From assembly GCF_017348835.2 (NCBI RefSeq), contig NZ_CP071375.1: 64,000 nt of DNA; one strand, given 5' to 3'. Source of the stretch: Escherichia coli. Its GTDB lineage: Bacteria > Pseudomonadota > Gammaproteobacteria > Enterobacterales > Enterobacteriaceae. The translations under genes were made by a program, and so were the position numbers. Under the pieces are notes generated by a model, which saw only the letters and a list, made by a program, of their open reading frames with translations, did no database searches and had not been told where the DNA came from. Positions 32,512-35,722 of the stretch are shown one piece after another (within the stretch, counting starts at the first letter, position 1; the number at the start of each line of letters is the position of its first letter).

Positions 32512-33876
32512 TTGATTACACATATTAGCCCGCTTGGCTCCATGGATATGTTGTCGCAGCTGGAAGTGGATATGCTTAAACGCACCGCCAGCAGCGACCT
32601 CTATCAACTGTTTCGCAACTGTTCACTTGCCGTACTGAACTCCGGTAGTTTGACCGATAACAGCAAAGAATTGCTGTCTCGTTTTGAAAATTTCGATATT
32701 AACGTCCTGCGCCGTGAACGCGGCGTAAAGCTGGAACTGATTAATCCCCCGGAAGAGGCTTTTGTCGATGGGCGAATTATTCGCGCTTTGCAGGCCAACT
32801 TGTTCGCGGTTCTGCGAGACATTCTCTTCGTTTACGGGCAAATCCATAATACCGTTCGTTTTCCCAACCTGAATCTCGACAACTCCGTCCACATCACTAA
32901 CCTGGTCTTTTCCATCTTGCGTAACGCTCGCGCGCTGCATGTGGGTGAAGCGCCAAATATGGTGGTCTGCTGGGGCGGTCACTCAATTAACGAAAATGAG
33001 TATTTGTATGCCCGTCGCGTTGGAAACCAGCTGGGCCTGCGTGAGCTGAATATCTGCACCGGCTGTGGTCCGGGAGCGATGGAAGCGCCGATGAAAGGTG
33101 CTGCCGTCGGACACGCGCAGCAGCGTTACAAAGACAGTCGTTTTATTGGTATGACAGAGCCGTCGATTATCGCCGCTGAACCGCCTAACCCGCTGGTCAA
33201 CGAATTGATCATCATGCCGGATATCGAAAAACGTCTGGAAGCGTTTGTCCGTATCGCTCACGGCATCATTATCTTCCCTGGCGGTGTGGGTACGGCAGAA
33301 GAGTTGCTGTATTTGCTGGGAATTTTAATGAACCCGGCCAACAAAGATCAGGTTTTACCATTGATCCTCACCGGCCCGAAAGAGAGCGCCGACTACTTCC
33401 GCGTACTGGACGAGTTTGTCGTACATACGCTGGGCGAAAACGCGCGCCGCCATTACCGCATCATCATTGATGACGCCGCTGAAGTCGCTCGTCAGATGAA
33501 AAAATCGATGCCGCTGGTGAAAGAAAATCGCCGCGACACTGGTGACGCTTACAGCTTTAACTGGTCAATGCGCATTGCACCAGATTTGCAAATGCCGTTT
33601 GAGCCGTCTCACGAGAATATGGCTAATCTGAAGCTTTACCCGGATCAACCTGTTGAAGTGCTGGCTGCCGACCTGCGCCGTGCGTTCTCCGGTATTGTGG
33701 CGGGTAACGTAAAAGAAGTCGGTATTCGCGCCATTGAAGAGTTTGGTCCTTACAAAATCAACGGCGATAAAGAGATTATGCGTCGTATGGACGACCTGCT
33801 ACAGGGTTTTGTTGCCCAGCATCGTATGAAGTTGCCAGGCTCAGCCTACATCCCTTGCTACGAAATCTGCACGTAA
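32512..33876 (+). CDS. ppnN: Pyrimidine/purine nucleotide 5'-monophosphate nucleosidase (LOG-family)
   Basis: 454-aa [39 protein letters not shown]... Confidence 0.93.
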
Positions 33877-34432
33877 TCTCCCCTCCCCCGGTGACGTTTG
33901 TTGCCGGGTTTTCTCGTTTTTGGTCACTTACTCATCAACTCATTTCATTTGTTATATGAATGTTTCTTACCACCCTCACGCGACAAATATCATCACAGTT
34001 AATATGTCATACAATTTATATTGCAACGCAAACGTTTCCCTATTTTCATAAACCGTATTTTATCGCTATGAAAAAGAAATTATCGCCATGATTAACTAAA
34101 AGTATTGATTTTTTCAGTTCAACCTACATATATTGCGCGCCCCGGAAGAAGTCAGATGTCGTTTAATGGGCAAATATTGCCTTTAAATTCTCTTTTACTT
34201 TTGATTTACAGAGTAAAGCGTTGGGATAATCTATCTTCCAAGTAGATTATTGTATTTGGGATCAAGATCACTGATAGATACATAACTTGTGTGTATCTTT
34301 CCGCCCTCAAATTATTACGGCGGTAAATGATTAAGCCATCGCCGATAGACAGATTTCATTTTTACGGTCAGGCACCTTCCCGGGCTGAACTGGCTAAAAG
34401 CTGAATTATTTGCATTCCTCCAGGAGAAATAG

Positions 34433-35722
34433 ATGGAAACGACTCAAACCAGCACGATTGCGTCGAAAGACTCTCGTAGTGCCTGGCGCAAGACAGACAC
34501 CATGTGGATGCTGGGCCTTTACGGCACGGCAATCGGCGCGGGCGTGCTGTTCCTGCCAATCAACGCCGGTGTTGGCGGTATGATCCCGCTGATCATCATG
34601 GCTATCCTTGCGTTCCCGATGACGTTTTTTGCTCACCGCGGCCTGACTCGCTTCGTACTGTCTGGTAAAAACCCGGGCGAAGACATCACCGAGGTTGTAG
34701 AAGAACACTTTGGTATTGGCGCAGGTAAACTGATTACCCTGCTCTACTTCTTCGCTATCTACCCGATCCTGCTGGTTTATAGCGTGGCAATCACCAATAC
34801 CGTTGAAAGCTTCATGTCTCACCAGCTGGGTATGACGCCACCGCCGCGTGCGATTCTGTCGCTGATCCTGATCGTGGGTATGATGACCATCGTTCGCTTC
34901 GGTGAGCAGATGATCGTTAAAGCGATGAGTATTCTGGTATTCCCGTTTGTTGGCGTACTGATGCTGCTGGCTCTGTACCTGATCCCGCAGTGGAACGGCG
35001 CAGCACTGGAAACGCTGTCTCTGGACACTGCATCTGCAACCGGAAACGGTCTGTGGATGACCCTGTGGCTGGCAATTCCGGTAATGGTGTTCTCGTTCAA
35101 CCACTCTCCGATCATCTCTTCTTTCGCCGTTGCGAAGCGTGAAGAGTACGGCGATATGGCAGAACAGAAATGCTCGAAGATCCTGGCATTCGCACACATC
35201 ATGATGGTGCTGACCGTAATGTTCTTCGTCTTCAGCTGTGTACTGAGCCTGACTCCGGCAGACCTGGCTGCGGCTAAAGAGCAGAACATCTCGATTCTGT
35301 CTTACCTGGCTAACCACTTTAACGCACCGGTTATCGCGTGGATGGCTCCGATTATCGCGATTATCGCTATCACCAAATCCTTCCTCGGCCACTACCTGGG
35401 CGCACGTGAAGGCTTCAACGGTATGGTGATTAAATCTCTGCGTGGTAAAGGTAAGTCTATCGAAATCAACAAGCTGAACCGTATCACTGCGCTGTTCATG
35501 CTGGTAACGACCTGGATTGTTGCCACCCTGAACCCGAGCATCCTGGGTATGATTGAAACCCTGGGCGGCCCAATCATCGCGATGATCCTGTTCCTGATGC
35601 CGATGTACGCAATTCAGAAAGTACCGGCAATGCGTAAGTACAGCGGTCACATCAGCAACGTATTCGTTGTCGTGATGGGTCTGATTGCAATCTCCGCAAT
35701 CTTCTACTCTCTGTTCAGCTAA
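34433..35722 (+). CDS. sdaC: Serine:H+ symporter (HAAAP family)
   Basis: 429-aa [49 protein letters not shown]...; RBS GGAGAAA upstream. Confidence 0.97.

Follow-up and report, generated by a model that had tools for sequence, protein, structure and literature searches.

What occupies the long gap between ppnN and sdaC in Escherichia coli, and which of its sequence features bear on the expression of sdaCB, the serine import and deamination operon that follows? We addressed this question in a window, by which we mean the whole analyzed stretch of 64,000 nucleotides of E. coli DNA, where queF, ppnN (ygdH), the ppnN–sdaC spacer, sdaC, sdaB, and xni follow one another in that order. An earlier note, made from the sequence of the window, had described the spacer as a long AT-rich leader of complex regulatory character and had singled out a tiny ORF and a palindrome within it. 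As that note claimed, the gap before sdaC is non-coding and AT-rich: it extends over 556 bp from the ppnN stop codon to the sdaC ATG (33877–34432), its GC content is 37.8%, compared with approximately 48–59% in the flanking genes, and the RefSeq annotation contains no feature inside it. The spacer is 100% identical to that of strain EC1515, differs at four of its 556 positions from K-12 MG1655 (U00096.3; K-12 coordinate = window coordinate + 2,893,796), and is found in 5425 of 5426 complete E. coli genomes. The suggestion of a complex regulatory region is borne out by the literature, in which YieP, PurR, CRP, Lrp, and ArcZ all act there. The spacer is a known and already studied multi-regulator control region of the sdaCB operon, transcriptional as well as post-transcriptional. 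We consider it quite probable that sdaCB is served by a composite control region, made up of these published elements together with a predicted proximal CRP-dependent promoter, in which the tiny ORF and the perfect palindrome are incidental.

For footprinting, a scan with SdaC gave 80 loci from different Enterobacteriaceae species, 76 of which have ppnN directly upstream with spacers of 436–648 bp; all counts below refer to these 76 other Enterobacteriaceae with conserved ppnN–sdaC synteny. Conservation was mostly low in the 5′ half of the spacer. Conserved islands were found at a PUR box, in the surroundings of a distal promoter, and at the ribosome-binding site, and a near-invariant block spans approximately 34240–34330.

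The upstream part of the spacer holds elements that can be placed with the help of published data. The terminator scan identified a plus-strand intrinsic terminator of ppnN at 33887–33913, with a 9-bp GC-rich stem followed by a T-run. Its hairpin has a folding energy of −14.9 kcal/mol (z = −4.13), and the primary 3′ end of ygdH mapped by Term-seq (PMC7815308 supplement) is K-12 position 2927709, corresponding to window position 33913. A GC-rich hairpin, a U-tract, and a mapped RNA 3′ end thus coincide at this site. Farther downstream lie two sites for the activator YieP, ATTTGTTATATGAAT (33947–33961) and ATATGTCATACAATT (34002–34016), which we located in the window from the sequences given in the Methods of PMC8282354. 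That study combined IPOD-HR and pull-down with gel shift and reporter mutagenesis to define both sites, and the second is at an IPOD-HR/ChIP-exo peak. The first is conserved within Escherichia, and the second is invariant across four Escherichia sequences. Next to them is a PurR operator, or PUR box, ACGCAAACGTTTCCCT (34026–34041), which has zero mismatches to ANGCAAACGTTTNCNT; the naive expectation of an exact match is approximately 0.002 per 64 kb. Table 1 of Cho 2011 assigns the same 16-mer, written on the other strand as AGGGAAACGTTTGCGT, to the “sdaC-sdaB” PurR ChIP-chip region (2925514–2926070 in U00096.2), which had a log2 ratio of 2.08 with adenine and 0.83 without it. The 16-bp palindromic box is thus present here, and the literature documents its occupancy in vivo. 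A PUR-box-like sequence is retained in many of the 76 genomes' genera, though not in all.

Downstream of the PUR box, the promoter scan detected a distal sigma-70 promoter on the plus strand at 34105–34134 (TTGATT-18 bp-TATATT, 9/12 consensus positions), whose −35 element begins at 34105 and whose −10 element (34129–34134) is followed by a GC-rich discriminator, GCGCGCCCC. Genetic data agree with this match. Insertions at K-12 positions 2927924 (+A) and 2927928 (+ATT), which were selected in a cya (cAMP-deficient) strain, raise sdaC expression and permit growth on serine; they correspond to window positions 34128 and 34132 and so fall inside or beside the distal −10 element. According to Frendorf et al., no sdaC promoter has been experimentally verified, and the accessible portions of the start-site supplements of Kim 2012 and Ettwiller 2016 yielded no entry for the sdaC locus. 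From the position of the −10 element, we infer a start near 34141 and hence a 5′ UTR of approximately 290 nt. The distal promoter is identical in four Escherichia sequences, except for one spacer base in E. whittamii, and within the 76-species set its −35 element is conserved in Escherichia and Salmonella only. The description of the spacer as one long leader can therefore not be maintained, as 33887–33913 is the ppnN terminator and the −35 element of the genetically located promoter appears only at 34105.

The near-invariant block contains a CRP site at 34254–34275, whose core TGGGATCAAGATCACT occupies 34257–34272 and is centered at 34264.5. In a CRP ChIP-seq table for ETEC, the motif given for sdaC is AGTGATCTTGATCTCA, the reverse complement of window positions 34257–34272 with the A that K-12 and ETEC carry at 34259. 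The window strain has G in place of this A, at position 3 of the left CRP half-site, which varies across the family. The core matches 8/10 positions, and the window holds two-mismatch cores of this kind at chance frequency; the standing of the site derives from ChIP-seq and conservation: the CRP pattern TGnGATC-N3-GATCACT is present in 75 of the 76 species, and the published data place CRP on the site in vivo. Activation of sdaC by CRP has been reported for the gene as a whole, with no assignment to a proximal promoter. The same ChIP-seq table contains a second CRP-like motif, TGATAGATACATAACT (34272–34287), which we rejected, as conservation across genera does not extend to its right half.

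The arrangement of sequences around the CRP site suggests a second promoter. At 34271–34299 on the plus strand, a −35-like CTGATA (34271–34276) is separated by 17 bp from a −10-like TATCTT (34294–34299). The latter hexamer is TATCTT in 68 of the 76 species, TACATT in five, and TATCGT in three, and the TGA of CTGATA is invariant or nearly so. Counting back from the start that TATCTT implies, the CRP center at 34264.5 is at a distance of exactly 41.5 bp. Because the CRP site, CTGATA, the 17-bp spacing, and TATCTT match class II geometry, the sequence suggests that a second, proximal CRP-dependent class II promoter serves sdaC, with a predicted start near 34306 and a predicted 5′ UTR of approximately 127 nt. 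This putative promoter agrees with the consensus at only 8/12 positions and was absent from the promoter scan output. The longest inverted repeat of the spacer, GATAGATACA / TGTATCTTTC (34273–34301), spans the interval from the proximal −35 to the proximal −10. In its family form, GATACAT-N11-ATGTATC, 81% of alignment cells are complementary among 59 distinct sequences, and slid registers mostly give 2–42%, with 68% at +4.

Post-transcriptional control enters at the 3′ end of the spacer. The Shine-Dalgarno region CCAGGAGAAATA (34420–34431, plus strand) covers −13 to −2 of the sdaC AUG and is the pairing site of ArcZ; base pairing of ArcZ with −13 to −2 of sdaC mRNA was described by Papenfort 2009, as relayed by PMC11331407 and PMC3546686. 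In the footprinting, TCCTCCAGGAG at the Shine-Dalgarno region is highly conserved.

The two promoters may have separate tasks. Growth in rich medium would depend on the distal promoter, which has the YieP and PurR inputs, and the proximal promoter would serve cAMP-CRP conditions, in which carbon is limited; the CRP site would then act on the proximal class II promoter. In glucose-rich medium, with its low cAMP, sdaC is expressed at an approximately 20-fold higher level (PMC8282354). Together with the CRP-independent up-mutations in the distal −10 element of a cya strain, this rise is consistent with two promoters. We found no explicit description of a two-promoter sdaCB architecture in the literature. 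A fuller version of the proposal holds that sdaCB has tandem promoters with separate logic, the distal one associated with YieP and PurR and the proximal one family-wide, and that the block GTGGATTATTGCA and a CCAC dyad constitute an operator that gates CRP-dependent serine catabolism, with Lrp or another factor as the candidate gating regulator. We regard this combined scheme as unlikely and put it forward tentatively.

The dyad just mentioned is the inner part of the palindrome. As the earlier note reported, ATAATCTA-N9-TAGATTAT is present at 34226–34250, with arms of 8 bp. It abuts the CRP site and lies at approximately −80 to −56 relative to the predicted proximal promoter; in the distal transcript it would span approximately +85 to +110. 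Of 2000 dinucleotide-preserving shuffles of the spacer, 18.5% contained one or more perfect 8-bp inverted repeats with a loop of 3–20 nt. The spacer itself also has a second perfect 8-bp repeat and a longer imperfect one.

Lack of conservation had been named as the observation that would speak against the palindrome, and here the outcome was divided. The right arm is conserved, falling within a block with the family consensus AAGTGGATTATTGCA, but the left arm is much less so. A core of CCAC-N7-GTGG (34231–34234 with 34242–34245) is found family-wide, with each pair complementary in 63–72% of species, and the three outer pairs of the 8-bp arms are confined to Escherichia. Moreover, A34228T breaks the left arm, with no compensating change, in two divergent E. 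coli strains that we compared and likewise in E. whittamii. Across the alignment, 61.3% of cells were paired compared with 59.9% after shuffling (11 of 500 shuffles reached the observed value), the covariation score was 0.159 compared with 0.146 (36 of 500), and slid registers of the palindrome had 28–52% of cells paired. These figures indicate a register-specific consensus dyad, yet one with almost no covariation. The C-G to T-A replacement at 34232/34244 is the single double change and occurred in the Escherichia lineage, and ten sequences have the right-arm A with no matching T in the left arm. We conclude that the perfect 8-bp palindrome of E. coli is incidental and that selection bears only on the right arm, contained in GTGGATTATTGCA, and perhaps on the 4-bp inner dyad. 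The block GTGGATTATTGCA, next to CRP, is most likely a protein contact surface at the level of DNA, for Lrp, the C-terminal domain of the RNA polymerase alpha subunit, or another factor.

Lrp is known from ChIP to bind upstream of sdaC, where it is treated as a repressor, and the published binding is resolved to the level of the region only. Scanning the spacer with the Lrp SELEX consensus YAGHAWATTWTDCTR gave a single match with three or fewer mismatches, the candidate 15-mer AAGTAGATTATTGTA (34240–34254, plus strand, 12/15), which overlaps the right arm of the palindrome. Matches of this quality number 84 in the window compared with 81 expected. As this is chance frequency, we treat Lrp on the right arm as a lead rather than a result.

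Could a dimeric transcription factor use the dyad as its operator and so gate activation by CRP? The dyad often extends to ATCCAC-N7-GTGGAT, both arm cores are present in approximately 63–72% of species in a fixed register (slid registers have 28–52% of alignment cells paired), and it directly adjoins the CRP site in the most conserved block of the spacer. Lrp, which binds and represses at sdaC, would be one candidate; others would be a CytR-like anti-activator, DnaA, or some other regulator. We take ATTGCATT, beside the CRP site, to resemble a CytR octamer, and TTATCCACA, found in Salmonella and Citrobacter, presumably resembles a DnaA box. The reverse complement of AAATGTATCTT in genera other than E. 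coli's own likewise looks, in our estimation, like an NsrR half-site. We set the CytR and DnaA readings aside, as both resemblances are weakest in E. coli, and rejected the NsrR reading on account of its wrong spacing and the loss of the match in E. coli; a literature link was not found either. The accessible literature likewise gave no support for CytR and DnaA. An operator for any of these factors is further at odds with the much lower conservation of the left arm than of the right, with the changes to both arms in E. coli itself, and with the chance frequency of the 12/15 Lrp match, and the right arm could owe its conservation to contacts of the polymerase alpha C-terminal domain or of the CRP flank instead. 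A dimeric operator at this dyad is possible, if doubtful.

A second alternative dispenses with the proximal promoter. The distal promoter, starting near 34141, would alone drive sdaCB, and 34240–34330 with the CRP site would act within the leader, the conserved block serving as a roadblock or an element of DNA architecture. In its favor, the distal promoter is the only one with genetic support. In addition, a register-shifting complementarity, CCGCC...GGCGG (34301–34323), forms a conserved stem-loop-like feature across the predicted proximal start, which hints that transcripts initiated upstream matter or that the start is elsewhere. Against these points, CRP activates sdaC, yet a CRP site at +124 of the distal transcript would be expected to hinder transcription. 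The CRP center, the −35-like hexamer, the 17-bp spacing, and TATCTT (68 of 76 species, the rest having −10-like variants) fit a class II promoter exactly, and these proximal elements are family-wide, whereas the distal −35 element is confined to Escherichia and Salmonella. We therefore judge a single distal promoter to be decidedly unlikely and retain the two-promoter arrangement as the preferred reading.

The palindrome might also function as RNA, forming a hairpin in the approximately 290-nt distal leader that affects stability or processing or that provides a platform for a protein or small RNA. It does lie downstream of the inferred distal start, the isolated hairpin folds at −9.1 kcal/mol (z = −2.17), and Escherichia has T-A at 34232/34244 where other genera have C-G. 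This exchange, however, is a double change in one lineage only, set against the ten sequences whose right-arm A is unmatched, and the hairpin is not formed in the minimum free energy fold of the 305-nt distal leader (z = −1.31). The small excess of pairing and covariation over shuffles, the far stronger conservation of the right arm, and the uncompensated A34228T in two divergent E. coli strains also count against it. The proximal leader gave a fold with z = +0.27. An Rfam scan of 33000–35500 returned three chance-level snoRNA matches only, all outside the spacer, and RNAalifold, applied from approximately 34288 to the AUG, a span that leaves out the palindrome, recovered no consensus helix other than a trivial pairing of 3 bp next to the Shine-Dalgarno sequence. 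The spacer has neither the family match nor the covariation or stability that characterizes a structured cis-regulatory RNA. Given the weak covariation in particular, an RNA hairpin is not supported, and we consider it improbable.

The tiny ORF remains. The earlier note had pointed to ATGAAAAAGAAATTATCGCCATGA (34068–34091, plus strand), which encodes MKKKLSP followed by a stop codon, and had noted the lack of a clear Shine-Dalgarno sequence; both statements are correct, and the 20 nt before the ORF (ATAAACCGTATTTTATCGCT) have no Shine-Dalgarno-like purine run. Four ATG-initiated mini-ORFs of up to 15 codons occur in the spacer, compared with 4.7 ± 2.0 in 2000 dinucleotide-preserving shuffles. 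The ORF, at approximately −74 to −50 relative to the inferred distal start, precedes both the −35 (34105) and the −10 (34129–34134) of the nearest located promoter and so is outside that transcript. Conservation, the property on which the functional claim had been staked, is lacking: the ATG aligns with an ATG in one of the 76 other species, and the two closest sister species have replaced it, E. whittamii by GCA and another Escherichia species representative by GTA, and have lost the stop codon too. The adjoining distal promoter is almost unchanged in these sister species, with one spacer base differing in E. whittamii. No terminator or antiterminator follows the ORF, the ppnN terminator being the sole terminator-like site in the scan of the spacer, and the Term-seq data set (PMC7815308) lists no 3′ end within the sdaC leader. 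We conclude that the seven-codon ORF is a chance ORF located upstream of both promoters and not a functional uORF. Two longer ORFs in the possible leader, at 34156–34245 (29 codons) and 34327–34404 (25 codons), were rejected as well, for their ATGs are not conserved outside Escherichia; Salmonella has ATA and ATT at the corresponding positions. Long leaders with small ORFs do occur in enterobacterial amino-acid operons, and this ORF has an ATG and an in-frame stop, but with no Shine-Dalgarno sequence, a chance-level mini-ORF count, a genetically located promoter downstream of it, a start codon lost next to a promoter that is identical or nearly so, and neither terminator nor antiterminator nor RNA 3′ end behind it, the idea that the spacer is one long 5′ leader in which translation of MKKKLSP regulates sdaC by attenuation or uORF coupling is exceedingly improbable.

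Control of serine uptake and deamination through sdaCB affects survival of glucose exhaustion, growth on serine, and gut colonization, and the control region is an existing test case for YieP, CRP, Lrp, PurR, and ArcZ. Beyond annotation, our analysis matters little: it removes a spurious uORF call, makes clear that no conserved RNA element underlies the flagged palindrome, and directs attention to 34240–34330 as the most conserved part of the spacer, which holds the predicted class II CRP promoter and an unassigned conserved block. The explicit two-promoter proposal and the recognition of a family-wide conserved block with an unassigned element beside the CRP site are modest and provisional increments.

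How does this region compare with known systems? Its likeness to the trpL, thrL, ilvL, and tnaC attenuators is superficial, consisting of a very short ORF before an operon related to amino acids. Unlike in those systems, the ORF upstream of sdaC has no Shine-Dalgarno sequence, no run of regulatory codons, no terminator or antiterminator, and no conservation, and it is outside the known transcript. The sdaC region is thus neither a leader-peptide attenuator nor a riboswitch, as the defining features of both were tested and were absent. The likeness to class II CRP promoters such as galP1 and melR, with CRP at −41.5, is closer. The predicted sdaC proximal promoter likewise combines a weak −35 element overlapped by CRP, a 17-bp spacer, and a −10 element; it differs in that its start is predicted, its discriminator is GC-rich, and another promoter lies approximately 165 bp upstream. 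Among PurR operators (16-bp, ACGNAAACGTTTGCNT), the sdaC box fully matches the degenerate consensus and has published, adenine-enhanced binding in vivo. Whereas 44% of PurR sites sit over the −35 or −10 element, this one precedes the inferred distal start by approximately 108 bp. The closest counterpart is the E. coli sdaCB region of the literature, sdaCp, which is the same locus. That promoter region is activated by CRP, repressed by Lrp, activated by YieP, bound by PurR, and repressed by ArcZ; all of its published sites map onto the spacer analyzed here, and the window shows no essential difference from it.

The longest inverted repeat in the ppnN-sdaC spacer, GATAGATACA / TGTATCTTTC (window 34273-34301), runs from the -35 to the -10 of the inferred proximal promoter. 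Its family form is GATACAT-N11-ATGTATC, and across 59 distinct sequences the repeat is 81% complementary, a higher conservation than that of the palindrome flagged in the earlier note (34226-34250). The repeat could be a repressor operator, or it could simply reflect chance complementarity between the -35-like and -10 elements. A stem-loop-like complementarity, TTTCCGCC...GGCGG(T/A)AAA (window 34297-34326), straddles the predicted proximal start. Its 5′ arm is invariant; the 3′ arm varies among species, yet stays complementary in shifting registers, and within E. coli the pairing survives or becomes longer with the SNPs C34321T and T34324A. Among 56 distinct sequences its median z was -1.5, with half of them below -1.5. 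Transcription starting at ~34306 would leave this complementarity unexplained.

The flagged palindrome itself, a dyad adjoining the CRP site, takes a different form in Salmonella and Citrobacter. In loci L010, L012, L021, L028, L035, L044, and L053 of these genera, the left arm (aligned to window ~34226-34236) reads TTATCCACA, a perfect match to the DnaA-box consensus. On the opposite strand, the conserved right arm of the same loci reads TAATCCACT or TAATCCACC where the arm is GTGGAT; three of them carry variants of this arm, namely GCGGAT (L010 and L012) and GTGAAT (L053). The DnaA-box match is lost in E. coli. At ~34160-34190, a position within the distal leader, a conserved block containing ...TCGTTAATGGTAGCCTTCGCGCCCGTAAATTC... 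is common to many non-Escherichia genera (aligned region in loci L006-L082); in Escherichia its core is swapped for a different small palindrome, GGCAAATATTGCC.

Two repeats overlap the 7-codon ORF MKKKLSP (34068-34091) that the earlier note had pointed out. A direct repeat, TTATCGCTATGA / TTATCGCCATGA (window 34060-34091), has a 20-bp spacing, equal to two helical turns, and the start and stop codons of the ORF both fall within it. Only E. coli and a single close relative (L004) have this repeat; conservation extends further for a TTATC(A/G) core at ~34058-34064. The right arm of a second perfect 8-bp inverted repeat, TTTTCATA-N16-TATGAAAA (window 34043-34074), overlaps the ATG of the ORF. 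Conservation of this repeat is absent beyond Escherichia, and 5.9% of shuffles contain two perfect 8-bp inverted repeats together.

In E. coli 23AR0151 (NZ_CP195448.1), a sputum isolate, an IS903B element is inserted in the ppnN-sdaC spacer (1838-2894 of locus L085), and the annotation treats sdaC as a pseudogene with a truncated N terminus. This looks like a naturally occurring loss-of-function allele of the serine transporter. Term-seq places an RNA 3′ end inside sdaC at window 34554 (K-12 2928350), 121 nt into the coding sequence (PMC7815308 supplement).

A PurR box (window 34026-34041) sits shortly 3′ of ppnN, whose product is a purine-nucleotide nucleosidase. The inferred distal and proximal starts lie ~108 bp and ~270 bp, respectively, downstream of the box. 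Compared with PurR repressor sites, its distance from either start is unusually large.
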